From Pseudomonas phage EL, in the sequence record AJ697969.1: DNA of 64,000 nucleotides; one strand, given 5' to 3'. Under the pieces are notes generated by a model. It was not told where the DNA came from, did no database searches, and worked only from the letters and a program-made list of their open reading frames with translations. A program made the position numbers and the translations under genes. Each line of letters begins with the position of its first letter. Positions within the stretch are counted from its first letter, which is position 1. Below are positions 1,943-53,158 of this stretch, in pieces.

Positions 1943-3619
1943 ATGTCTCAAACGCTACTGGTACATGGTAAAGATGCCCAAGGAATCATTAAACAGGTCT
2001 TGAGTGAGGTGTATGACGCCGTCACTTCGACCATGGGTCCGAATGGTCAGTTGGTGATGATCAAGAATGGGGTCTCCACCAAGACCACCAAGGATGGGGT
2101 GACGGTAGCCCGTTCCATTCGCTTTGCAGATGAAGCCCATGAATTGGTGAACCGGGTAATTACCGAGCCGGCTACGAAGACCGATGAGGAATGCGGGGAT
2201 GGCACTACCACCACCATCATGCTGACCCATGCGCTCTATCACCTGTTCAAGGACTTCCCAGGTTTCCAACACCACCGGAACATTGAAGACTTGGTAGAGC
2301 GGGTTATCCAACGTTTGGAATCCATGGCGATTCGGGTGGAAGTGGATGACCCTCGGTTGTATCAAGTGGCCCTGACCTCGTCTAACCAGGATGAAAAGCT
2401 CGCCCGACTGGTTAGTGAGCTCTATGCGAATAACAAAGGGAGTTATCCGGATATTGAACTCAAGGAAGGGGTCAACTTCGAAGACCAGATCGAACAAACT
2501 ACAGGGCGCACTATCCGTATGTTCTACGCGAATCCCTGGTTTGCGAAAGGCCACCAAGGGGGTGTGACAGAATTGACGGGGTTTACGGCGTTCGTTATCG
2601 ATCGTCGGATTGACAAGGAAGACACCCAGAAGTTGATTGATGGGGTGAATCACCTTGTGAAAACTCACAAACAACACCTGGCCCTTCCCATCCTGCTGAT
2701 TGCACGAAGTTTCGAAGAAGCCGCTAACTCGACCCTGATGCAATTGAATGCGGCGCACCCAACCCTGGTAGAAGACGGACGTCCTTGGTTAATCCCGTTG
2801 AGTACGCCGGTAGGTGGTGCAATTGGGACCTCTGAACTGCAAGACATCGCGGTCATGCTGAACGCCCCTATGCTCAGTGACGTAGCGGACCTGACCAAGT
2901 TGGATACCCATTCGATCAATGGCCAACACGGCCAACTGGAACTGGGGGGCAATCGGTCTATCCTGAAGAGTACCACACCTAAGGATGAAGACCGGATCGA
3001 ACAACATGCTCGGGGTATTGAGGAACTGTTGGAGGGGTTTAGCCTCAGCGATAAGTTCTCTGTACGCGCCCGGTACAACGAACGGCGTATTCGGACCCTA
3101 CGGGGTAAGTTGATCACCATTTCCGTAGGCGGCGAAACCTATTCTGAAGTCAAGGAACGGGTAGACCGGTACGAGGATGTGGTGAAAGCCATTCGTTCCG
3201 CCTTGGAGAACGGCATCCTTCCTGGCGGTGGCGTATCCCTGGTTAAGGCGGTCTTCGGTACGATCAAGGAAGGCCTCGAAGATAAAGACCAGAGCGCTGA
3301 GTTTGCTAAGCGGTATATCAACTCAGGCATTGCCAATGAGTTGATGCGACTGTCCACTATTCAGCATAAGCTGTTGTTCAAGGACACGGCGCTGTATAAG
3401 GAAAATGGGAGTTTCCATTTTAATGATGATTGGCTCAATACACCGACCGTCATGAATCTGGCAACTGGTGAGATTGGTACCCCGGAGGGATTGGGTATTT
3501 ATGACACCGCGTATGCCTCTATCACTGCGCTGAAAGGCGGACTCCAAACCGCTAAGATCTTGGCCACTACGAAGACACTGATCCTAGGGGAGAAGTTGTC
3601 GGCGGTTAAGGTGCGGTAA
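1943..3619 (+). CDS. GroEL-like (Cpn60) chaperonin, phage-encoded
   Basis: 558 aa. N-terminal region aligns with GroEL (TMGPNGQLVMI.., ..TKDGVTVARSI..). Canonical ATP-site motif GDGTTT (GDGTTTTIMLTHAL). GGAG SD. No GroES-like ORF adjacent. Confidence 0.85.
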   Translation: MSQTLLVHGKDAQGIIKQVLSEVYDAVTSTMGPNGQLVMIKNGVSTKTTKDGVTVARSIRFADEAHELVNRVITEPATKTDEECGDGTTTTIMLTHALYHLFKDFPGFQHHRNIEDLVERVIQRLESMAIRVEVDDPRLYQVALTSSNQDEKLARLVSELYANNKGSYPDIELKEGVNFEDQIEQTTGRTIRMFYANPWFAKGHQGGVTELTGFTAFVIDRRIDKEDTQKLIDGVNHLVKTHKQHLALPILLIARSFEEAANSTLMQLNAAHPTLVEDGRPWLIPLSTPVGGAIGTSELQDIAVMLNAPMLSDVADLTKLDTHSINGQHGQLELGGNRSILKSTTPKDEDRIEQHARGIEELLEGFSLSDKFSVRARYNERRIRTLRGKLITISVGGETYSEVKERVDRYEDVVKAIRSALENGILPGGGVSLVKAVFGTIKEGLEDKDQSAEFAKRYINSGIANELMRLSTIQHKLLFKDTALYKENGSFHFNDDWLNTPTVMNLATGEIGTPEGLGIYDTAYASITALKGGLQTAKILATTKTLILGEKLSAVKVR

Positions 3620-3630
3620 GGGGTTTGTAA

Positions 3631-3670
3631 AGGAGTAGGGGGAAGACCCCTACTCCTTTATTTTTTTTTT
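3631..3670 (+). terminator. rho-independent terminator
   Basis: Stem aggagtaggggg/ccctactcct followed by T10 run. Confidence 0.7.
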
Positions 3671-3781
3671 AAGGAAATCGATGGATGACGAAGCATTTGA
3701 AGGAGGTAGACATCCTATGCAGTGAGTCTTGTAACTTCTTTTGACTTACTCCCATTGGACCACCTTTAAGAGGATAAAGCA

Positions 3782-4411
3782 ATGGCTTCAAACCTTCCAA
3801 TCCAAACGATCTTCCTCGACAAATTCGTCGAGTTCAACAAAGACCGCTACAAAGACCAGGCGGAAATGCTCGCCCTCTTTGACGGCCTGACCCTCGCGGA
3901 CATCACGATCTCCGACATCACCGCCGACGGCGCCAACCCCGAGCTGCAAAGCGCCACGGTCACCTCTGTGAGCCGCAACTTCAAAGGTGTCGAACAAAAA
4001 TGGCTCCCGGCGAACATCAACACTCCGTTCGCCTTCGTGGTGGTGAACAAAGGCGCTCCCCTGACCGGCGAAGACCAACTGGCCGAGCAGACCACCCCGG
4101 GTGCCTACGTTTACCTGGTCGGTGAAGGCGAAGAAGCGGTTCAACGCGTGGGCCTGGTGCTGGCTTCCACCACCACCACTGAAACCCAAGCCGCCGACGC
4201 CCTGGCGCTGTTCAAGGCCAACTTCGAATACGTCCTGGACGACGCCGATGTCGATACTGCCACCGCCAAGGTGCTCAAGGTAACCACCAACCCGTTCACC
4301 CGCGGCGAGCTCGTGTACGAAATTGGTAAGGCTCCGATCATCGAGATTCCGGAAACTGACTACGGTCGTCTGGAATTCAAAGAAATCGTTCAACCCGAAC
4401 CCCAACCGTAA
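3782..4411 (+). CDS. hypothetical protein, GC3-rich; paralogue of the 16098-16691 product
   Basis: 209 aa. N-terminus IFLDKFVEFNKDRYKD..LTLADITISD matches LFLERFIAFNKERYSD..LTLDNTTLSD of the minus-strand ORF 16098-16691. Codons are strongly G/C-ending, unlike its neighbours. AGAGGATAAAGCAATG SD-like. Confidence 0.7.
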   Translation: MASNLPIQTIFLDKFVEFNKDRYKDQAEMLALFDGLTLADITISDITADGANPELQSATVTSVSRNFKGVEQKWLPANINTPFAFVVVNKGAPLTGEDQLAEQTTPGAYVYLVGEGEEAVQRVGLVLASTTTTETQAADALALFKANFEYVLDDADVDTATAKVLKVTTNPFTRGELVYEIGKAPIIEIPETDYGRLEFKEIVQPEPQP

Positions 4412-4566: not shown

Positions 4567-5148
4567 ATGTCATTAGGAATATTCACCATGAGTATGAGTA
4601 CTGCTAAAAGGGGTAACTTTTCTACGTCCCCCGGCAAGGAAGACGATGATCTTCCTCTGCACGAGATCCGGGATGCCTTTAATCCCGCGTTTGTGAAAAC
4701 GTTTGACAAACTGGGCCTCGACCCACAATTGATCAAAGAGTTTATTTACGCGCTTGATCTGCTCGACAACATCGTTAAGACCCCCAACTTCGTATCGGGC
4801 AGAATTCTGAATAACCGAGATATCGAAGCGTACGGCGAAGAAGCGGTCTTCGCGTTCAACCGGAATAACAATATCCCGTACTACTACGTGCGGTTGGGTA
4901 TTACCGTGTCGGAAACGGTGTACAAATTGCAGGACGAGTTTCTGGAACGTGATTATCCCAAAACGATCCTGAGTATTCTCCGCCCCATGCGCACGCCCGG
5001 TATTGACGTGACCGTAGACGGCCATCCTTACAACGTAGGGATTACCTTCAAAACGCCTCATCCTTTGTTCGGTTTGGTGAATTACCAAGATCTCCGGACT
5101 GGGATGAACACTTCAGTCCCCTTCCTACTCACTCGGGTGGGACTTTGA
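4567..5148 (+). CDS. hypothetical protein
   Basis: 193-aa ORF. An internal ATG at 4588 with AGGAA SD may be the true start. Confidence 0.5.
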   Translation: MSLGIFTMSMSTAKRGNFSTSPGKEDDDLPLHEIRDAFNPAFVKTFDKLGLDPQLIKEFIYALDLLDNIVKTPNFVSGRILNNRDIEAYGEEAVFAFNRNNNIPYYYVRLGITVSETVYKLQDEFLERDYPKTILSILRPMRTPGIDVTVDGHPYNVGITFKTPHPLFGLVNYQDLRTGMNTSVPFLLTRVGL

Positions 5149-5248
5149 TCCTCTACCTGCTCCACTGGGCTTAACGCTCCGGTGGAGCGGGGTAGGGGTT
5201 ATTACCGCTTTAAATTTTTCAATACACCAACCCAAAAAGGTAATAACC

Positions 5249-6133
5249 ATGCCGAAGAATGAGAACAATCCTGATAAACAAGGTCTTACGTCTATCTCTG
5301 ATGAAGACTTGGATAAGGCACTCAACGAACTGGACAACGCAGGGGAAGACGTAACTCCGGTGTCCGAAGAGACCACTACGCGGCATCCGGGTACGTCGGA
5401 TATCCTCAACCGCTATTCACATCCCGCCCTTCAGCCGAAGAAGGGAACCCCTGAATACATCGAGTGGAAAGCCGCTCTCAAACAGAAGGAGGACCGATTA
5501 GTGGAATCCTTGAAGACTTCGGTGACCCAGGAACATGAAGAGAATGTCCTGAAAGGGAATACCCTGGGTACTAAACCGAAGACCAAGCAGGTAGAAGGCC
5601 TGTTGGAGATGGTGGTTCGTAAGAAGGCTGAACTCACCCAAGAAGACACCGTAGACGCCGCAGAACGCGCATTGGCAGCGCTGAAGCGGGTGCGGGAATA
5701 TAACCGTAAGAAACGTATTCGACTGTGGTGTATTGTTGTCGGGCTCTTGGTGGTTGTGGGAAGTGGTCTCTATGGGGGGTGGATGTTCGTCCAGAAACAA
5801 ATGCTCACCGGTCATTACACCGTGGTCGCGGAGTGCAAAGTCCCTTACGGGGATTTTGAAATTACCGGTAAGCGGTACTACCGCTACGCGTATCAATCGA
5901 TTCTGGGTTACCACCTCGTGGATGAGGGTACGGTCGAAGAAGTCACCGAAGTCAAACTCCCTGGGGATAAAATCATTATCCTGGGATTCGATGCGAGTAA
6001 AGGGAACTGGTGGCGGATGAACTATGACCGGGGAGAATTCGGTACCGTTAAACTCAAACCTACAGATAAGTACTGGTTCGTCGGCGAGAAAGACCGTACC
6101 ACCCTGGTACCTTATCACTCGTTCTGCCATTAA
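5249..6133 (+). CDS. hypothetical membrane-anchored protein
   Basis: 294 aa. Acidic N-terminal half, then one predicted TM helix (IRLWCIVVGLLVVVGSGLYGGWMFV). SD AAAAAGG. Confidence 0.6.
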   Translation: MPKNENNPDKQGLTSISDEDLDKALNELDNAGEDVTPVSEETTTRHPGTSDILNRYSHPALQPKKGTPEYIEWKAALKQKEDRLVESLKTSVTQEHEENVLKGNTLGTKPKTKQVEGLLEMVVRKKAELTQEDTVDAAERALAALKRVREYNRKKRIRLWCIVVGLLVVVGSGLYGGWMFVQKQMLTGHYTVVAECKVPYGDFEITGKRYYRYAYQSILGYHLVDEGTVEEVTEVKLPGDKIIILGFDASKGNWWRMNYDRGEFGTVKLKPTDKYWFVGEKDRTTLVPYHSFCH

Positions 6134-6162
6134 ACGGTAACCTTACCGAGGGAGTCAATCCC

Positions 6163-6741
6163 ATGCTGAATACTTCAGACCAACCTGTGGGTCTCTTGTC
6201 CAGTCGATTGTACATCGATCCCAACGATGGTTCTTTCTTTACCGGTCATTTGGAAAAGTCCCACAAGAAACGGTGTCACTTAGTACGCCACAAGCTCCAA
6301 TACGCGATCCGGTATTATTCATCCGTTAAACTGCCCGAGGGGTGGTTGGTGGGGATCAGTGACCGGGAGGCAAGCCGGTATTACTTCTTCCCTACCCAGG
6401 GAAAACGGAGGAGTATTCTGGTTCCTTTACCCAGTACAGCGTACCGAGAGATCTGGTTTAACCTGTTTAAAGGGATCTGGATGACTGGTACCCGGGAGGC
6501 TATCTACCTGCACAGTGTGGCGTATCCCCATCTCATGGAGCTCTTGAACGAATCCTTAGTCCCCAGAGTGATTTCTGTTGAAGGTGAATGGAAAGGGGAA
6601 GGGTATATTGCGTCTCTGGAATGGAAGCCTGAAAAACCCGGTCGGTTGATCGTAACAACGACCTTGGATAATGCTAAAGACCACAGTGTTCCGATCCAAT
6701 GGCATCCCATCGATGCGGTGGTTCGTCTCATCCGAAAGTAA
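6163..6741 (+). CDS. hypothetical protein
   Basis: 192-aa ORF, GAGGGAG SD. Tightly packed with its neighbours. Confidence 0.55.
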   Translation: MLNTSDQPVGLLSSRLYIDPNDGSFFTGHLEKSHKKRCHLVRHKLQYAIRYYSSVKLPEGWLVGISDREASRYYFFPTQGKRRSILVPLPSTAYREIWFNLFKGIWMTGTREAIYLHSVAYPHLMELLNESLVPRVISVEGEWKGEGYIASLEWKPEKPGRLIVTTTLDNAKDHSVPIQWHPIDAVVRLIRK

Positions 6742-6753
6742 GAGGATTACATC

Positions 6754-7617
6754 ATGAAAGAAGAAAACCAGAAGAAGACCAACAGTTTCCAAGGTGGCGA
6801 TGTTCGGGTAGTGTCTTCTAAGACGCATCCCGGTAAATCGAAATTCCTCCCGGTAAACCTCATGGGACCGGATACGATCGAGAACCCTGACCAACTGGTC
6901 CTCCAAGTTCATCACCGTCTGACCGAAGGCCAGAAAGCGTTCTACCACACCCTGGAAACCTACGGGCTGTGTAAGGCCTACAGTTCGTCACCCGATCCCC
7001 GTACGTTGGTGATCAACATCGCTACCGGTCTTCCCCACACCAAGGAAGAGAAAGACGCTCCTCGCCGCAGCATCGAGCTGGACGCCGGCATTATCCTCTA
7101 TGCGGTTATCAGCGAACGGGAGGGTGGGGCCTTCAAAATCGTCATCGTGGGAACCGCTACCCATACGTCTTATTTGGTGATCCGTGAGGACGTTGCCTTC
7201 TCGTTTATCATCGATAAGGTGTCTTTGTCGGTTCAGGATGCGGTAGTCGCCCTGTACGCCAGCAACCTCAGCAAAGGTCGAGGGCTCTTCGAGAACACCG
7301 CTAAACACCTTCCGGACTTCTTCTACAAGCTGTTTAAAGCGGTCTTCCCGGAAATGGTTCGTCTGGAATTCACGATCACTCACATTCATGAAGACAGTGT
7401 TCGCGTTGCGCTGTACTGGGATCCTAGGGGACCTAACAAGAATCTCATTGCCTGCAATGGGTTTGTCTTCCCGTTGGACATTTCCCAGTTCCCGGGTAAA
7501 CAAATCTCCCGGGGGTATAACCTCCAGAAGAAAGAAACCCGTCATGTCGCTCACAAACAAAAGACATCTGACCTGTCAGTCAATACCCAGCGTCTGTTGG
7601 AAAAGTTCTCGAAATAG
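6754..7617 (+). CDS. hypothetical protein
   Basis: 287-aa ORF, AAGAGGA SD. A hairpin (gaggtggggggtaacacccctacctc) follows. Confidence 0.6.
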   Translation: MKEENQKKTNSFQGGDVRVVSSKTHPGKSKFLPVNLMGPDTIENPDQLVLQVHHRLTEGQKAFYHTLETYGLCKAYSSSPDPRTLVINIATGLPHTKEEKDAPRRSIELDAGIILYAVISEREGGAFKIVIVGTATHTSYLVIREDVAFSFIIDKVSLSVQDAVVALYASNLSKGRGLFENTAKHLPDFFYKLFKAVFPEMVRLEFTITHIHEDSVRVALYWDPRGPNKNLIACNGFVFPLDISQFPGKQISRGYNLQKKETRHVAHKQKTSDLSVNTQRLLEKFSK

Positions 7618-7700
7618 TCTGTGAGTACGAGGTGGGGGGTAACACCCCTACCTCTACCTATGCTGTAACGCGCTGTAACACCCTTTAAAGAGTTTTTAAC

Positions 7701-8201
7701 ATGAAAGGTACCCTACCCCATTACCAGATCAGAATTATCGCTAGAAGTGCCTTTACAGACGATTTAAAGGAGAGACTCAAACCACTGTATGAAAACCTCT
7801 TTCACCACGAACTCCATCTCGTCATTGGTACTAAAACAACCCGTAAGCTGTTTAAACCCTCCGCCCGTAAAAATCCCCACCCCTCCGTTATTGAGAAACG
7901 GTACGAAGACTTCTTCAAAGTAACCGACAAGATAGTACTCGTTACTCACTTGGGAGAAGCCGTGGGATATCTGGCGGTGGTTAAGAACAAGATCACCTCA
8001 CTCTTTGTTGAAGAAGACTTCCGGAAGCTAGGCTTAGGGCGGATCATGGTGTCCAAGTTACAACGGGGTGGACATCCTGTGAACCGGTTCCTCTACGTTC
8101 AATGCTTTACCCAGAATACAGCTGGTATCAACTTCTACCGGAAAGTTGGGTTTAAGGAAATTGACAGAGGAGAGATCTACACGGTTTTGTTAATGGAATA
8201 A
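7701..8201 (+). CDS. GNAT-family N-acetyltransferase
   Basis: 166 aa. GNAT motif A (FRKLGLGRIMVSKL, i.e. R-x-x-G-x-G) and motif B-like FYRKVGFKEI. Confidence 0.65.
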   Translation: MKGTLPHYQIRIIARSAFTDDLKERLKPLYENLFHHELHLVIGTKTTRKLFKPSARKNPHPSVIEKRYEDFFKVTDKIVLVTHLGEAVGYLAVVKNKITSLFVEEDFRKLGLGRIMVSKLQRGGHPVNRFLYVQCFTQNTAGINFYRKVGFKEIDRGEIYTVLLME

Positions 8202-46148: not shown

Positions 46149-47594
46149 ATGAAACCGACTAACATTACCCTCTTAGACCCCCGGACGATTGTTCCGGGTG
46201 TCTTTAAACCTATTACGTCTACAGACTCATTTGAAGGGATGACCCAGAACCTCAATGATGACGGTCTCTTCTCCCTTGACATCTTCGGTAAACTGGGTAG
46301 TAAACAACGTGATAACACGGAAGCGTATATCGACGTTAAACTTCCCATCTTCAATCCCACTTACCTAAAAGCCCTTATACAGATCAAAAGTCTGTATCAT
46401 TCAATTTTGAAAGGGTCGGAATACGCGGTATGGGATCCCGAACTGAAGGATTTCATAAAATCGAACATCCTGGAAGGGGAAAAGGGTTTCGCCTTCTTCC
46501 TGAAACACTTCGATGAAACCGTCTTCTCCCTGACCCCCTCTCATAAACGCAAACAACGGGTAGAACTGGCGAACCAATTCCGTAACACGGCGTTAACGGA
46601 TAAGGTCCTGGTCATCCCCGCGGGTCTCAGGGATATCCAATTCAATCCAGATGGTTCCCACACCGAACCTGAAATCACTGAATTCTACCGCGCCTTAATG
46701 TTCCGGGTGAGAGTGATCCTCGGGAATAAGGAAGATGCCCTGAACCCCCTTTACGATACCGTTCGGTGGGGGGTACAGAATGCTTTCTTGGAATTGGATA
46801 ATTACCTCTTTGGTTTACTCCAGGGGAAAGGGGGTGTTCTCCAGCGTCGTATGTCCACCCGAGGGGTTCACAACAGCACCCGGAACGTCATTACCGCCCG
46901 TAAAGTCTCCAGGACACGTTTAGACTTCGACGACGGTGTAGGTCCTAACTCTGCGGACATGGGACTCTACCAAGCCCTGCTGAACTTCCCTTATGTCTGC
47001 ATCAATGCGTTAACCAACGGCTACCTTTCCAACATCTTCACCCCCAGCTCTCAAACCGCTAAGCTGGTGAATACCAAGACCCTGGAATACGAATACGCTG
47101 AAGTCTCCCCTGAGGTGGTAGAGAAATGGACCACCGCCACCGGGTTAATGAAACTCTTCAACGGGTTTGCCGATCCCTCCTTACGGAGTAAACCCATTGT
47201 CATTGAGTGGAAATACTTAGCCCTCATTTATGATGATGGGACTGATGTGTGTGTTCTCCATGACATCAACGATCTCCCTCAAGGGAAAGACCGTAAATGG
47301 GTGAAACCTATCACCTACATGGAACTCTTCTACTTGAGTTGCCACAGTGTCATCGAAGAACAGATTACAGGACAAACCCGGTATCCCATTACGGGGATTG
47401 GCTCTATCTTCCCGGCTAAGGTTAACCTACGTACCACCACCAATGCGAGCCAGCGGGTCATTCGTAATCCGATTGATTGGAGTGTGCGGGAAACCTGTAA
47501 ACGGTTCCCTAAACGTGAAGCCCACCCCGATTACTTCGATGCCATGTCCGTAGACCCCTCTAGAGAAGCTTTGCTCGACAGTGACCATGATTAG
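46149..47594 (+). CDS. multisubunit RNA polymerase beta-prime-like subunit, N-terminal fragment (exon 1)
   Basis: [25 protein letters not shown] aligns with E. coli beta-prime [39 protein letters not shown] occupies the place of the NADFDGDQMAVH catalytic loop. The stop TAG 47592-47594 coincides with the start of the group I intron. Confidence 0.7.
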   Translation: [481 protein letters not shown]

Positions 47595-49354
47595 ATAGTG
47601 ATGCATGATATAAACTCACTATACAACTCCTATTGTATGCGGAAGTGTTCGCATTCGACCATAAGGAGTTGTAAAGATGCTAACGTGTTTTGGAAAGAAA
47701 TACGTGTTGTCTACAACCAACACGGTTTACAATGTCACCGATAAGACAGATGTTCCAGTCCATCGGATGACAGACGGGAATACGTTCTTCATCGCACGGG
47801 GCGATGAAAACGAACTGGTTAAGATCAAACTGGGGTTAATGATCCTCCATGGAGAAGGAAAGTTCCATCTTCCTCTCTCTGAATGGGAACAGGTGAAAGT
47901 AGGTTTTCTGGATGACGATACAGGAAACTTTGCAGCGGATAACCTTTACTTGGTCTATCCTGAAGAGGGCATCCCTTACCCTGAACTCTCTGGGTACTAC
48001 TACATCCCTGGGTTTGAACTCAACGCAATCAACCGAGACGGTGTGGTATACCGAACAGTTAGAAAGAATCTTTACCCACCGTATCTGGGTGGTAACACCG
48101 TTCCTAACAGTTTCTACCCCTTTGTTCGACTGGATGTGGTCAGTGGGGATGAACGCAAGTATGTCCACCGGCTACTGGCGGAGACCTTCGGTAAGCCGCC
48201 TAAGGGCTACCCCAAGCTACTGGTCGACCATAATGACGGTAACAAGATGAACTTCAAGCTCTTTAACTTGATTTGGGTTACCGCTAAGGACAACTCCTTC
48301 AAAGCGTACAACAATCAAGAAGCGAGAGCGGACAATAATCCCTTGGAGGTTTTTGACAGGGAATTAGGTCAAGTCTTTAAGTACGTCAGTCAAAATGAGT
48401 TTGCGAGAACCATGGAGGTGGATTCTTGGTGCATTAGTCTGGTACTCAAACGTCCTCGTTCAGTGTACAAGAACAGGTACGTTCTTCGTCGGAAGGGAGA
48501 TACACGTGACTTCCAAGAGATCTGGGACTATAAGCCCCCTGTGGGTAAGAAGATCCTTGCCCGGAATGTCTTCACCGGTGAAATCACGGTGTATAATTCA
48601 TTGGCGGAGGCCTCTAGAGCAACACAGGTAGGGACAACAGGCATCCTGACGTCCCTGAGTAACACCAACCCGAGATCCGCCTTTAAAGACCTTCAATTCA
48701 AGCGGGAGTCTGACGAGACCCCTTGGCCTGATTTGAATGAATACGAACTGGAATGCATCCGGCGCAAGATGCACCCTGCTACAGCTGTGTATGAAATGTT
48801 TGATTCGGTAACCCAGGAGACGTCGATTGTGTATGGCGTTGATGCAGTTACCCGAATCACCGGAGCCAATCCCCGTACCGTTATCGTTTGCGCACGAGAA
48901 GGTAAGTTGCTCCATTCCCGTTATCGTTTCAAGAAACTTACACGTTAACGAGTTTATATCCATCACTTAGTCCGGCTAGGCACGAAAGTCCTAGACCGTA
49001 TTCCTCTGAATTGCTGGGAGTTCACAAAAGTCTGTTGGCTACAACGTAACTGGAAACAGTAAGCGTGAATGCGACCGAAAGGTAGAAAGAACAACAGACC
49101 TGACCTACGCTAACCAATAACGCTAAGGGTCGTAAACAAGGGACAATCAGCCGCTAAGACGCTACCGGGTATTAAACCCTATGCGTAAAGTTCAACGACT
49201 AAGGGAGTTATGACCCTGTACACCTACCAAGGAAGGGGGTGGAAGTGGAGGAGACCTAAGGGGGAATAGACCTATTCCCTACGGTCAAGATATAGTCTGG
49301 CCCTGTTTAATAAACAGGCAGGCACCTGAGTGTGCCGGGTCCTAGTACGGACTG
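47592..49354 (+). mobile_element. group I intron (about 1.76 kb) carrying an HNH homing endonuclease ORF
   Basis: Core elements downstream of the ORF: P-like CTGAATTGCTGGGAG (~49016), Q-like AATCAGCCGC (~49158), R GTTCAACGACTAAGG (49188-49202), S CAAGATATAGTCTGG (~49289-49303). These match the Tetrahymena intron R GUUCACAGACUAAA and S AAGAUAUAGUCGG. Then P9-type hairpins cctgtttaataaacagg, ggcacctgagtgtgcc, gtcctagtacggac. Boundaries are approximate and chosen to keep the frame. Confidence 0.6.
47677..48948 (+). CDS. HNH homing endonuclease (intron-encoded)
   Basis: 423 aa, AAGGAG SD. HNH core LLVDHNDGNKMNFKLFNLIWVT (H-x-DGNK-N....NL.WVT). Confidence 0.8.
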   Translation: MLTCFGKKYVLSTTNTVYNVTDKTDVPVHRMTDGNTFFIARGDENELVKIKLGLMILHGEGKFHLPLSEWEQVKVGFLDDDTGNFAADNLYLVYPEEGIPYPELSGYYYIPGFELNAINRDGVVYRTVRKNLYPPYLGGNTVPNSFYPFVRLDVVSGDERKYVHRLLAETFGKPPKGYPKLLVDHNDGNKMNFKLFNLIWVTAKDNSFKAYNNQEARADNNPLEVFDRELGQVFKYVSQNEFARTMEVDSWCISLVLKRPRSVYKNRYVLRRKGDTRDFQEIWDYKPPVGKKILARNVFTGEITVYNSLAEASRATQVGTTGILTSLSNTNPRSAFKDLQFKRESDETPWPDLNEYELECIRRKMHPATAVYEMFDSVTQETSIVYGVDAVTRITGANPRTVIVCAREGKLLHSRYRFKKLTR

Positions 49355-49546
49355 ACCACCGCGGGCGATCAATTGTCGAGCCATTCTGTTGTAGCGGAAG
49401 ACAGCAAACAACAGGCCTACGAACTCTTTGGGAAACGGGAGTATTACATCAGTGGTACGGGTCGGTTTTTGTACGATCCGATCAATGAACCGATTCTCTT
49501 TATGTTTAAAGCAGCGACGAGCGGCTTAGAGGATATTGAGGTATGA
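49355..49546 (+). CDS. putative exon 2 of the beta-prime-like gene (C-terminal ~63 codons)
   Basis: Frame-2 open stretch from 49346 (..TTAGDQLSSHSVVAEDSKQQAYELFGKREYYISGTGRFLYDPINEPILFMFKAATSGLEDIEV) ends in TGA overlapping ATG 49543 (ATGA). It has no start codon or SD of its own, consistent with an exon. Confidence 0.35.
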   Translation, partial: TTAGDQLSSHSVVAEDSKQQAYELFGKREYYISGTGRFLYDPINEPILFMFKAATSGLEDIEV

Positions 49547-52500
49547 GCAATCCAATTACGTATTCCGAGTTCTTTAAGCACTTTGTGCTGCGTAAGAAAC
49601 AAGACGTTGTAAACCCTAAAGTCCTGGGTATTGGTGAAGTGATCCTTCCTAAGGGGAGTTTACTGCACTTCGTACCGAAGACGATTAACGAAAAGGGACC
49701 GGGTAGTAGTGAAGCGTTTATCAGTAACTTCCCTAAAGAGGTCTTTATTGAGTTTGTAAGGGACGGGTATAAGCCGGTGATGGGGCATGGGCGGACAGTC
49801 GCCTATGACTACCCTAAGGCGGTTAAGGCGTACCGGGCGAGTCACTACATGTACAGCTGGGTGCGAGAGATCAGCACGGTGTACAACAAAGAGAACGTGT
49901 TGGTCGTTAAGAACTACGGGATGATTCCTCAGGGGTTCGTTTACCGTCCGAGTATTTTCGTGAATTATGAAAAATACTACAACATGATGCACCTGCTCAT
50001 TGAGAACATCAATGCAGAAGCCGAGAAAGGGGTGCGTCGGCAGTATATGCGGATTGACCTGCCGTTGAACCTGCCGTCCCTGGTTGAGCTTGAGAAAGAC
50101 TACGGACGGTTTATTGATGGGTTTAATGATGGGCATCCTGTCCTGATGCGCAATATGTTGGAGAGTACGAAGGCTGAGAACTGCTATTGGCTGTTGGACC
50201 TACTGGGGTTCCTGTTTGGCCAGTATTCGTTCAGTTTGTTCGGTAAACTCACCGACCAGGCGTATAAGGATTTGCATATCCTCTTTACGTCACAAAGTAA
50301 AGTCATTGTAGTACAACTGGGGCTGTTGAAGGGTTGGTTAGATGAAACAAATCCTAAAGACGAGAAAACCTACCCCTCTGCTCGGAAAGAGTTTGAAAGT
50401 CTGAAGACATTGACCCGCCATAATGCGGTTAAACGTTTCTATTTGGCTTTGATGAATCTTTCTCGTGGAGGCGTTCCTGAGAATGTACTCATTAAAGAGG
50501 AAACGAAAAATGTCATCCCAATTGCCGGAGAGAAAGGTACCGTTGACCAAGTGGCTGCGGGAACGTCACGAGAAGAAGAAGAAGAAACATCCAATCTTCC
50601 AGAAACCCGAGACCATACTGGCTCGGGCACGGTTCCCCGTGCTGATCGTCCTGCTGGTTCTATCCTTGATGTTTTCAGCCGAAGTGAAGGACCTGGCGAG
50701 GCACATGACGAAGAGCAAGACACAGCGGGAGAACGAGGTGCTGATTCAAATCTTGAAGAGTGGACATCGCCGGTAGATGATGAACTGCTGGAGGTGGAGA
50801 AAGTCCAAACCGAGATCAATACCAACAAGAATGTGTTTAAGACGCCTGAGAGTGGTGTAAAGCGGGCGTTGGAGGAGCGGGCTAAGGAAGGTACGCTGAC
50901 GGTGGCTGAACATGATTTCTTCATGCGTAAAGCGACCCGTTATCAGCACATTGAGATGGAGAACGGTCAAACGTTCGAAGAGTTCATTCAGATCAAACCC
51001 GAAGAGGTTAAAGACCTGGGTGGAGAGATTGAAGGTGAGTTTCTCCCCGTACTGGATGAGAGCATGTTGCGGAGTCGTGCCAAATCCCTCAAGATCGAAT
51101 ATCCTCAGAAGTTTTTACACCGGGATATTGGTCGAATGGTGTTGGGTCTTCAGAACGCTGGCTTTGCGATGAACGACTACCGGCGTGAGAAGGTCGTCAG
51201 CGTAGAAGGCAGTTACGAGGTCCACAGCATTCAGTTACACGAAGTCAATGGTGATCAGGTCACTGTACATACTCGGTTGCCTACGGTGCTGAAAGACGGC
51301 ACCTACGTCATTGATGGTGTTAAGCAACACATGCAACTGCAACGTCGGGAGAAACCTTTCCGGAAGATCAGTCCTCGGGAAGTGGTGCTGTCGAGCTATT
51401 ACGACCGTAAGCTCATGGTGAGTCGTAGTCCGAAGATGGTGGATAACCTCTCTACGTTCATGGTGAAGCAAATCTCCCTCCAGAGTAAGCGGAAAGGGTA
51501 TACGGTCACTAAAGGCAGTACGTGGGATCGCTCCCTTAAAGCCCCCCGGATTTACAGCATTCTGGCTCGTCAGTACAAGTACATTACTGTCGACGGGTTG
51601 GTATTGGACTTCCGGTTGAAGGATCTCCTGGAACTCCACCCTGAGTTCAAAGCCTATACCCGCCCTGATCGGTTCTTGATTGGGGTAAAAGACGGATTAC
51701 CTTTGATCATTGATGATTACGGTAACCTGTACAAAGGGGAAGAGGAACTCGGTACTGTTGAAGACTTGCTCGGTATTGATGTTCGTAAAGCGCCTTTGGA
51801 ACACGTGGTGATTAACATCAGCGGGTATTCGTTTCCGTTGGGAGTGGTCCTGTGCTTCTACTTCGGTATTGATGAACTGTTGCGGGTGATTAAAGCCACG
51901 ACGCGTTCGGTACCCGTAGGGACTCGCCCTAAATTGACGGAGGATGAATACGCGATTCAGTTCAATGACGAATACTTGATCTTTAACCGTCGGGAGAAGC
52001 TCACCACGTTGATCTTCGGTGGAATGCCGAAGTTGAACAACATCAGTAACTTCAGTCGGAGTGATTTGAATAATAACAGTATTTGGAGTGCGTTAATGGG
52101 AGACCCTCGGGTTCGCCCATCTCAGTTCCAGGAAATGAAGAACCTCTTCGATCTCTTTATCGATCCCATTACGAAAGACCTCTTGAAAGAGATGAAGCTG
52201 TCTGAAGACTTCCATTACTTGCTGATTGATGCGGCTAAGGCATTGGAAACGGATTACAGTCGACACGAGGTGGAGATTGAAGAGCAACGCATTGTAGGGT
52301 ATGAACGCTTCGCGGGTCATCTCTACACGGAATTTGTAAAGTCCATTCGTCAATACCGGAATAAGGGGAAAGGACGTAAACACAAACTGGACTTTAATCC
52401 GGACGCGGTTATTATTGCCATTGGTACTGACCGGTCTACGAACTTGGTGGAGGAAGTGAATCCAGTTCACCAAGTGAAGGACCAAGAGGAAGTGACGTTT

Positions 52501-52746
52501 GGGGGTACGGGTGGTCGTAGTGAAATCACCATGGTCAAACGCGCACGGACTCAGCTGGAGAGTTACAAAGGGGTCATCAGTGAAGCCAACAAGGACAGTG
52601 GTAAAGTGGGGTATGTGACCTACACCACCTCTGATCCGGGTATCGCTGATTTCCGAGGCAATGTTGATCCCAAGAACAAACGTACTCCTACCGGTGACGG
52701 TTCGGTAACTATGAACCTGATGTACGGTGGAACGCATGACGATTGA
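49543..52746 (+). CDS. multisubunit RNA polymerase beta-like subunit, N-terminal fragment (exon 1) with long phage-specific N-terminal extension
   Basis: 1067 aa. GTYVIDGVKQHMQLQ aligns with beta GTFIINGAERVVVSQL. NPVHQVKDQEEVTFGGTGGR aligns with beta Rif-region [20 protein letters not shown]. Acidic low-complexity segment (SREEEEETS..). GAGGA SD. Stop TGA 52744-46 at intron start. Confidence 0.7.
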   Translation: MSNPITYSEFFKHFVLRKKQDVVNPKVLGIGEVILPKGSLLHFVPKTINEKGPGSSEAFISNFPKEVFIEFVRDGYKPVMGHGRTVAYDYPKAVKAYRASHYMYSWVREISTVYNKENVLVVKNYGMIPQGFVYRPSIFVNYEKYYNMMHLLIENINAEAEKGVRRQYMRIDLPLNLPSLVELEKDYGRFIDGFNDGHPVLMRNMLESTKAENCYWLLDLLGFLFGQYSFSLFGKLTDQAYKDLHILFTSQSKVIVVQLGLLKGWLDETNPKDEKTYPSARKEFESLKTLTRHNAVKRFYLALMNLSRGGVPENVLIKEETKNVIPIAGEKGTVDQVAAGTSREEEEETSNLPETRDHTGSGTVPRADRPAGSILDVFSRSEGPGEAHDEEQDTAGERGADSNLEEWTSPVDDELLEVEKVQTEINTNKNVFKTPESGVKRALEERAKEGTLTVAEHDFFMRKATRYQHIEMENGQTFEEFIQIKPEEVKDLGGEIEGEFLPVLDESMLRSRAKSLKIEYPQKFLHRDIGRMVLGLQNAGFAMNDYRREKVVSVEGSYEVHSIQLHEVNGDQVTVHTRLPTVLKDGTYVIDGVKQHMQLQRREKPFRKISPREVVLSSYYDRKLMVSRSPKMVDNLSTFMVKQISLQSKRKGYTVTKGSTWDRSLKAPRIYSILARQYKYITVDGLVLDFRLKDLLELHPEFKAYTRPDRFLIGVKDGLPLIIDDYGNLYKGEEELGTVEDLLGIDVRKAPLEHVVINISGYSFPLGVVLCFYFGIDELLRVIKATTRSVPVGTRPKLTEDEYAIQFNDEYLIFNRREKLTTLIFGGMPKLNNISNFSRSDLNNNSIWSALMGDPRVRPSQFQEMKNLFDLFIDPITKDLLKEMKLSEDFHYLLIDAAKALETDYSRHEVEIEEQRIVGYERFAGHLYTEFVKSIRQYRNKGKGRKHKLDFNPDAVIIAIGTDRSTNLVEEVNPVHQVKDQEEVTFGGTGGRSEITMVKRARTQLESYKGVISEANKDSGKVGYVTYTTSDPGIADFRGNVDPKNKRTPTGDGSVTMNLMYGGTHDD

Positions 52747-53158
52747 GCTGTTGTGAAAACAATAGATCACTCAGTCCAACCAGGGAGTAATCCCTTGTTG
52801 CCATTACCTTTAATTGCGGGAACCTACTGAGAGCCTTATCTACCAAACCCGAGCAGGAAACCAACGGGTGGCCAACCATAACGGGTTGGGGACGGTAATA
52901 ACGATAAGGATTGGGGAACCCTACGCAGCGAAGCACCTACGTATTGTCGAGAGGACAAGATAGGGTGAACGTTCAACGACTACGGATGAAATTTCCGGTA
53001 GAGGTGTCAGGATGATACTTCCAAAAGTAAGGTTGCCCTGTATGCTTGAGGTGTGAATAACACTGAGTACAGGGATGAAATATAGTCTCGTCATCTAAGG
53101 GAAAACCTTAGAGCGTGGTGCTACGCGCACCGGCGGATAGGATATCCGTGAAGAAACG
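52744..53158 (+). ncRNA. group I intron (ORF-less, about 415 nt)
   Basis: P TTAATTGCGGGAACC (~52817; matches Tetrahymena AAAUUGCGGGAAA). Q-like CGCAGCG (~52945). R GTTCAACGACTACGG (52968-52982). S GATGAAATATAGTCTCG (~53073). Hairpins ctaaggGAAAAccttag, ggtgcTACGcgcacc, cggataGgatatccg. Boundaries are approximate. Confidence 0.55.

Follow-up and report, generated by a model that had tools for sequence, protein, structure and literature searches.

A putative mobile group I intron within the metal-binding motif of a beta-prime-like virion RNA polymerase gene of Pseudomonas phage EL

In the polymerase gene cluster of Pseudomonas phage EL, a Pseudomonas aeruginosa jumbo phage with a genome of ~210 kilobases (kb), one gene raises a simple question: why does the reading frame of a beta-prime-like RNA polymerase subunit stop in the middle of its metal-binding motif, and where is the rest of the protein encoded? 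We addressed this question in a stretch of 64,000 nucleotides (nt) from this phage (sequence record AJ697969.1), referred to as the window, in which position 1 is the first letter. The upstream open reading frame (ORF), 46149-47594, encodes 481 amino acids (aa) and ends ..DSDHD, followed directly by TAG at 47592. Next come an HNH endonuclease gene, ~415 nt without a long ORF, and a short frame that has neither an ATG or GTG start nor a Shine-Dalgarno sequence, its sole in-frame start candidate being a TTG at 49373, past the GDQ codons.

Our answer, to which we assign a probability of about 0.9, is that 47592-49363 is a mobile group I intron in the gene for a beta-prime N-terminal-like virion polymerase subunit, and that its excision would rebuild the DxDGD motif. 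The ribozyme core, its covariation, the exon junction and the intact HNH motif of the encoded endonuclease were computed here. The parts of the interrupted gene are as follows (throughout, ^ marks a splice or insertion site):

46149..47591, plus strand: predicted exon 1 (481 codons) of the gene for the beta-prime N-terminal-like virion RNA polymerase subunit; ends ..LLDSDHD, last base U47591
47592..49363, plus strand: predicted group I intron of 1772 nt; starts UAG (in-frame stop), ends with terminal G49363
49364..49546, plus strand: predicted exon 2; 60 codons and stop, starts GGC GAT CAA (GDQ), PHROG 2986 positions 487-538

Exon junction and ribozyme core

When 47591 is joined to 49364, the gene aligns gap-free with nine uninterrupted homologues, namely gp231 of Erwinia phage Joad (59% identity) and eight IMG/VR contigs (69-76%), all nine of which read ..(L/Y/G)(D/G)SDHD^GD(Q/A/M)L..(E/S)EDSK; at the insertion site an example of an intron-less allele from the IMG/VR contigs is TCTGACCACGAC^GGCGACCAATTGAAC. 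The same boundary is given by PHROG 2986 ('RNA polymerase beta subunit'), a 539-position profile of the beta-prime-like polymerase subunit: exon 1 matches its positions 5-486 (E 9e-193), and the step from profile position 486 to 487 falls exactly on the 47591/49364 junction, with the Gly codon at 49364 starting the second segment and the three preceding codons, ACC ACC GCG, skipped. The predicted spliced RNA junction reads ..GACCAUGAU^GGCGAUCAA.., or ...GACAGUGACCAUGAU^GGCGAUCAAUUG... (GAU^GGCGAU), with U as the last exon base and G as the last intron base. The spliced product is predicted to have 541 aa and an intact D-S-D-H-D-G-D-Q-L, in which the restored D-S-D-H-D^G-D-Q corresponds to NADFDGDQ (NADFDGDQM) of the bacterial beta-prime metal-binding loop; the insertion point thus has the second Asp codon of the DxDGD motif on its 5' side and the Gly codon on its 3' side. 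Without splicing, TAG 47592 would stop translation, so that the third catalytic Asp would be missing from the protein. An earlier note, made from the letters of the window, had proposed that the subunit would be complete only after splicing to a short exon 2 whose TGA overlaps the next ATG. Both proposals agree with the collinearity of the predicted product with the nine homologues, with the continuation of PHROG 2986 in exon 2, and with the overlap of TGA 49544-49546 with ATG 49543 of the next gene (ATGA). The same ATGA overlap is found in the intron-less Joad locus (2890-2893 of that locus), and its presence in both phages is consistent with a conserved, co-translated operon.

Of the two splice sites that the earlier note had proposed, the 5' site after U47591 stands, and the 3' site at G49354 was misplaced by 9 nt: we set the end of the intron at G49363 because the nine intron-less homologues and PHROG 2986 are collinear at 49364. 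An intron of 47592-49354, with exon 2 starting ACC ACC GCG at 49355, does have attractions, in that G49354 directly follows the terminal hairpin P9.2, the reading frame is kept, and exon 1 again ends in U. However, such an acceptor would insert Thr-Thr-Ala between DSDHD and GDQ, where none of the nine homologues has a residue, and the stretch that PHROG 2986 passes over is precisely these three residues. Moreover, G49354 is the first base of a tail of 10-11 nt that lies between P9.2 and the terminal G in this intron and in the six related introns introduced below (7/7), with a G[G/A]ACA-like start, then 4-5 nt, then G; the junctions used for this comparison were set independently, by protein collinearity. 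We consider the shorter intron very improbable.

A permissive Rfam scan of the window, on both strands, returned two matches only, both to group I introns. One of them lies at 48945-49317 and covers the full-length RF00028 model (1-253) with 51.1 bits and an E-value of 4.6e-10 for the whole window and both strands, above the gathering cut-off of 50 bits; the other lies in the adjacent beta-like gene and is taken up further below. The conserved core elements P, Q, R and S, the GACTA/TAGTC pairing and the three terminal hairpins that the earlier note had listed are all present, within a base or two of the places it gave:

48976..49353, plus strand: ribozyme core, from the Rfam alignment, the RNAalifold consensus and pair counts
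49006-49020, plus strand: core element P, CTGAATTGCTGGGAG, read in the sequence
49145-49154, plus strand: core element Q, AATCAGCCGC, read in the sequence
49190-49204, plus strand: core element R, GTTCAACGACTAAGG, read in the sequence
49286-49300, plus strand: core element S, CAAGATATAGTCTGG, read in the sequence
48976-48994: P2
49001-49005 / 49248-49252: P3
49012-49017 / 49147-49152: P4
49021-49144: P5 with a long extension
49158-49187: P6
49197-49201 (GACTA) / 49293-49297 (TAGTC): P7
49202-49217: P7.1
49221-49241: P7.2
49253-49286: P8
49302-49318: P9, terminal hairpin
49321-49336: P9.1, terminal hairpin
49338-49353: P9.2, terminal hairpin

A search with the core found homologous cores, at 67-71% nucleotide identity, in six jumbo phages: the Vibrio phages VP4B and 2 TSL-2019, Photobacterium phage PDCC-1, Shewanella phage FishSpeaker, Raoultella phage VB_ZK_P1 and Klebsiella phage phiKp_32. 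All six related introns match RF00028 (34.5-53.9 bits). From an alignment of these six cores and that of the window, RNAalifold recovered P2, P3, P4, P5 with its long extension, P6, P7.1, P7.2, P8, P9.1 and P9.2. The consensus was edited by removing two spurious local hairpins and one long-range helix of two pairs and by adding the P7 pseudoknot, which left 78 pairs for scoring over 16 helices (P2 to P9.2, including the P7 pseudoknot); P9, which Rfam does align, was excluded from the counts, being out of register in the MAFFT alignment. Across the seven cores 94.9% of the cells of these pairs are base-paired, and 46 of the 78 pairs have changed on both sides, whereas sliding the partners by 1-3 columns lowers the paired cells to 36-45% and none of 500 shuffles reaches any of the five measures. 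P7 is invariant across the seven cores and so carries no covariation information. Compensatory changes affect three of the four pairs of P7.1 and five of the seven pairs of P7.2, and these two helices, which lie past the 5' strand of P7 and ahead of P3's 3' strand, indicate a subgroup IA-type core, a layout with P7.1 and P7.2 being that of subgroup IA. Rfam match and covariation together bear out the group I intron that had been proposed for this tract, in the scan as in the fold of the core. A pairing of GGACU 49349-49353 with AGUCC 48969-48973, considered as a P10-like or alternative helix, was rejected: it is not conserved, and GGACU is better read as the covarying 3' strand of P9.2.

The predicted P1 helix and the intron-encoded endonuclease

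The remaining helix that a group I intron of these limits would use, P1, joins the 5' splice site to a guide on the far side of the endonuclease gene:

47589..47617, plus strand: predicted P1 5' strand and extension; GAU^UA 47589-47593 (holds U47591), AGUGAUG 47597-47603, 11-nt extension to 47617
47663..47668, plus strand: AAGGAG ribosome-binding site, 8 nt before the HNH start codon
47677..48948, plus strand: predicted HNH homing endonuclease gene, intron-encoded, 423 aa
48950..48972, plus strand: predicted P1 extension 3' strand (48950-48967) and internal guide (UAGUC 48968-48972)

GAUUA 47589-47593 pairs with UAGUC 48968-48972, which sets U47591 opposite G48970 in the canonical wobble; beyond a 3-nt bulge, AGUGAUG pairs with CAUCACU, and a further 11 base pairs (bp) join 47607-47617 to 48950-48960. 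The co-fold energy of the P1 segments is -23.4 kcal/mol. The guide position is shared: an xAGUC stands 3 nt 5' of P2 in all seven introns (AUGUC in FishSpeaker) and also in the second intron of the window, and the GAU^U : AGUC core of P1 recurs in related introns. In phiKp_32 the pairing is GAUUG/CAGUC, with a compensatory change from A-U to G-C at the neighbouring pair, as in the second intron of the window, and a 7-bp stem that ends in a CAC loop stands exactly where the window has the HNH ORF. Equivalent long stems flank the ORFs of VB_ZK_P1, PDCC-1 and 2 TSL-2019. For FishSpeaker and VP4B the minimum-energy fold has no P1 of the window's type, and the equivalent pairing was found by eye only. 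A guide upstream of the ORF was tried and rejected: the 85 nt from the splice site to the ORF contain neither GUC nor AUC, and the one candidate, GUUGU, which overlaps the region of the ORF start and would give five pairs, three of them wobbles, is not conserved.

The HNH gene thus appears to occupy the loop of an extended P1, with the guide 3' of the ORF, and the earlier description of the interval as a free-standing HNH gene followed by 590 nt of non-coding DNA gives way to a gene that appears to lie inside the intron's P1 stem-loop. That the gene encodes an HNH endonuclease, also proposed there, is supported by a Pfam match to HNH_3 that spans residues 161-207 (42.6 bits, the cut-off being 24.8; E 4.7e-11) and by PHROG 59 (E 6.7e-50). 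The protein is full length. In an alignment with five homologues, gp179 of phage phiKZ included, which shows the motif HRLL...VDH.N..K......NL.W, residues H164, H185, N197 and N206 are invariant; HNH homologues of 33.5-35.7% identity occupy the corresponding place in five other jumbo phage records, and four of the six phages with related cores have one immediately 5' of the core. The activity and the target of the enzyme can be inferred from the behaviour of its family, by analogy with which the protein, made from its own ribosome-binding site, would presumably nick or cut intron-less alleles of the polymerase gene in co-infecting relatives and so lead to homing of the intron.

The following course of splicing can be proposed. 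The beta-prime-like gene would be co-transcribed with the downstream beta-like gene; in the transcript, UAGUC 48968-48972 would pair with GAU^UA at the 5' splice site and form the U47591-G48970 wobble, while the further stem of 7 + 11 bp would hold both ends together across the 1.36-kb ORF loop. Guanosine would then attack after U47591, and the exons would be joined after G49363, giving the 541-aa protein with DxDGD intact.

The intron weighed against its alternatives

Several points weigh against this proposal. The Rfam score lies just 1 bit over the gathering cut-off; only three exon bases (GAU) are paired in P1; no convincing P10 was seen when the bases 5' of G48970 were inspected by eye against GGCGAU; and, as the guide lies 1.36 kb from the splice site, P1 needs a long-range stem, which ribosomes translating the ORF could disturb. 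A weak P10 is common in phage group I introns. The assignment of the host gene as beta-prime N-terminal-like draws on motif, context and literature, with similarity at the level of the motif only: a profile of seven homologues, compared with solved structures, aligns in three collinear segments, NADFDGDQM included, with a chloroplast beta-prime and with a gamma (RpoC1-type) subunit at an E-value of only ~1, the spliced protein alone had no match among solved structures, and a Pfam search gave none for either polymerase gene. Splicing itself is what we infer from the sequence, and at the homologous phiKZ gp179 a long-read transcriptome found no evidence of it under its conditions (PMC10914365).

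The lack of reported spliced reads for phiKZ would also suit a gene that is never spliced but permanently split by a free-standing HNH gene, its 481-aa and ~57-aa pieces being made separately or the short piece not at all. In these jumbo phages polymerase subunits, the beta-prime-like ones among them, are naturally split into several separate genes (PMC7598289), and existing annotation follows the same pattern. The region 46149-49560 is 97.5-99.0% identical to seven GenBank phages (vB_PaeM_phiRU, or phiRU, MIZ-Pa99, IR-QUMS-PaBa1, HHBS47_1, HHBS8_1, GXNNE2 and GXNNA8); the intron is present in all seven of these near-identical Pseudomonas isolates, the HNH protein is 95.7-99.8% conserved among them, and their records list separate coding sequences for an 'RNA polymerase beta subunit', an 'HNH endonuclease' and a small 'hypothetical protein', with an intron label in none (0/7). 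Against a permanent split, compensatory changes have kept the core complete in phages from five host genera, which would be unexpected for inert spacer DNA; the second piece would have no credible start or ribosome-binding site of its own; and the break falls inside a five-residue metal-binding motif that intron-less relatives encode within one continuous protein. We therefore hold a permanent split to be highly unlikely.

A decayed intron that splices inefficiently, so that the gene is a pseudogene or needs a helper factor, would account for the borderline Rfam score, for the short P1 and for the window's P5, which pairs less well than the P5 of its relatives. It fits poorly with the essential role of this virion polymerase subunit in seven phages that were isolated independently and propagate, or with a window intron in which P3, P4, P6, P7 and P8 are intact and the endonuclease ORF is undamaged, with its catalytic residues conserved, and we give it hardly any credence. 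An intein or a frameshift is excluded by the TAG directly behind the last exon codon and by an intervening sequence with its own ORF and ribozyme.

Related introns, staggered insertion sites and a probable second intron in the operon

A group I intron behind the second Asp codon, the reading preferred here, has relatives in the same gene of other phages. The six related introns share the window's host gene and neighbours and, where an endonuclease is present, its place in the intron; those of VP4B and phiKp_32 are ORF-less, at 497 and 380 nt. In none of the six records is an intron annotated. Together with phiKZ, these introns occupy three staggered insertion sites, 6 nt apart, each behind a GAU Asp codon of DxDGD: after the first Asp in phiKZ and 2 TSL-2019, after the second in the window and phiKp_32, and after the third in VP4B, VB_ZK_P1 and FishSpeaker. 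The closely related phiKp_32 and VB_ZK_P1 differ in insertion site. A suggested reason is that the guide reads little more than GAU^U, so that the intron can move between neighbouring GAU codons. We hypothesize, tentatively and at somewhat less than even odds, that one family of ribozyme and endonuclease has colonised all three Asp codons of DxDGD and that, with the second intron described below, the operon is a place where homing elements of co-infecting phages compete with one another.

Staggered introns may also recombine. In PDCC-1 (MN562221, locus 2318-4060) exon 1, the endonuclease and the intron's 5' end resemble those of 2 TSL-2019, exon 1 ending GGD with C in place of U ahead of the splice site; core and 3' end are like those of VP4B, exon 2 starting QLNSNG. 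The element has the look of a 5' half of the Asp1 type fused to a 3' half of the Asp3 type. DGD-coding sequence is absent throughout the 6.1-kb PDCC-1 locus, and the predicted spliced product is without YDGD, which may reflect recombination of introns at staggered sites, a dead gene or a fault in the assembly. In Aeromonas phage PS1 (MN032614, about 2717-2984) an intervening sequence of ~270 nt splits the same motif at DFDG^DQL, where the exon ends in U and the insert in G; this insert gave no RF00028 match at an E-value below 0.01.

Among the nearest described systems is that of phiKZ, and the window's intron, itself unannotated, is related to introns that have been reported before from phiKZ-like phages. 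One account mentions introns in phiKZ gp179/gp180, citing Ceyssens 2014 and Mesyanzhinov 2002, and an intron in a virion polymerase subunit of 201phi2-1 (PMC11512511). The layout of phiKZ gp180/gp179 is the same as in the window, with a large gene on the opposite strand, exon 1 (490 aa), an HNH ORF, the core, an exon 2 of ~60 codons and the gp178 homologue. In the phiKZ sequence (NC_004629, 181500-190500; minus strand, about 4660-7759 of the locus) gp180 has 490 aa and ends ..LAPLGAD, and gp179 follows; 3' of gp179 lies an RF00028 match of 92.2 bits (E 3.2e-23), and after this core an in-frame FDGDTVSF...KQRD runs to the start of gp178. The 502-nt 'gap' before gp178 forms, with gp180 and gp179, the same kind of intron. 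It would be 1443 nt long and lie behind the first Asp, with the predicted junction ..GGGGCGGAU^UUCGACGGGGAC, and spliced gp180 is predicted to have 551 aa (GAD^FDGD), two of the three catalytic Asp residues being added by splicing. Like the window's intron, it has the GAU^U : AGUC core of P1 and an ORF in the loop of an extended P1, and gp179 is homologous to the window's HNH protein (26% identity); it differs in an insertion 6 nt upstream, in a shorter and higher-scoring core, and in belonging to a phage of another genus.

The other Rfam match of the window lies in the next gene, where it suggests the following structure:

49543..52743, plus strand: predicted exon 1 of the beta-like polymerase gene (phiKZ gp178 homologue); ends ..GGTHDD, matches PHROG 3148 at positions 2-1050 of 1424 only
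52744..53158, plus strand: second predicted group I intron, ORF-less, 415 nt; found by RF00028
53159..54277, plus strand: predicted exon 2 of the beta-like gene; starts VKRAVFTSTQ, placed by frame and homology

This second intron scores 40.5 bits (E 6.3e-8), under the gathering cut-off, and its P1, GAU^UGAG : CUCAGUC, has the same GAU^U : AGUC core. At its junction the window reads THDD^VKRAVFTSTQ, as against THDD^PKRASFTSTQ in an intron-less locus (L012) and ATEHDD^PKRINF, residues 1071-1072, at the same site of phiKZ gp178; the predicted spliced product has 1439 aa, compared with 1451 aa for phiKZ gp178.

It occupies exactly the site of the intron in PhiPA3 gp210, which is inserted after two conserved Asp residues that align with phiKZ gp178 D1072 (PMC11620839), and whose HNH enzyme nicks the intron-less allele and gives a competitive advantage (Birkholz et al. 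2024, Science; PMC11620839). Like the intron at 47592-49363, PhiPA3 gp210 combines a group I intron with an HNH enzyme, lies in a virion RNA polymerase gene of a Pseudomonas jumbo phage and is inserted at Asp codons that are conserved in the active site; it differs in that its intron lies in the beta-like gene behind ..DD, and the intron studied here in the beta-prime-like gene. The latter is a further, well-defined example among the few homing introns of jumbo-phage polymerase genes; another of these, PhiPA3 gp210, has been shown to serve as a weapon when phages co-infect. It does not overturn current understanding; the parts most worth the attention of specialists are the staggering of the sites, the ORF-in-P1 architecture and the presence of two introns in adjacent polymerase genes. 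A guide beyond the ORF and the spread over three Asp codons bear on how introns change sites and on how splicing and translation are coordinated. For annotation, the fragments and 'hypothetical proteins' of such records would be replaced by a 541-aa beta-prime-like and a 1439-aa beta-like subunit, each predicted to be complete only after splicing.

The intron of the SPO1/SP82 DNA polymerase gene (I-HmuI) and the Twort-like introns of Staphylococcus phages resemble the window's intron in their P7.1/P7.2 core, in an endonuclease of the HNH nicking-type family and in their position at conserved codons of an essential gene; they differ in host gene, and in the window the ORF apparently lies in the P1 loop with the guide downstream. 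In T4 and SPO1-type introns the ORF is placed further towards the periphery, in loops such as P6, P8 or P9. In more than 100 records of Staphylococcus phages the P3-P5 segment of the core (window ~49005-49072) has matches of ~81% identity over 65 nt; these matches are mostly unannotated, one lies under a 'viral RNA polymerase beta subunit' gene, and they are probably related group I introns.

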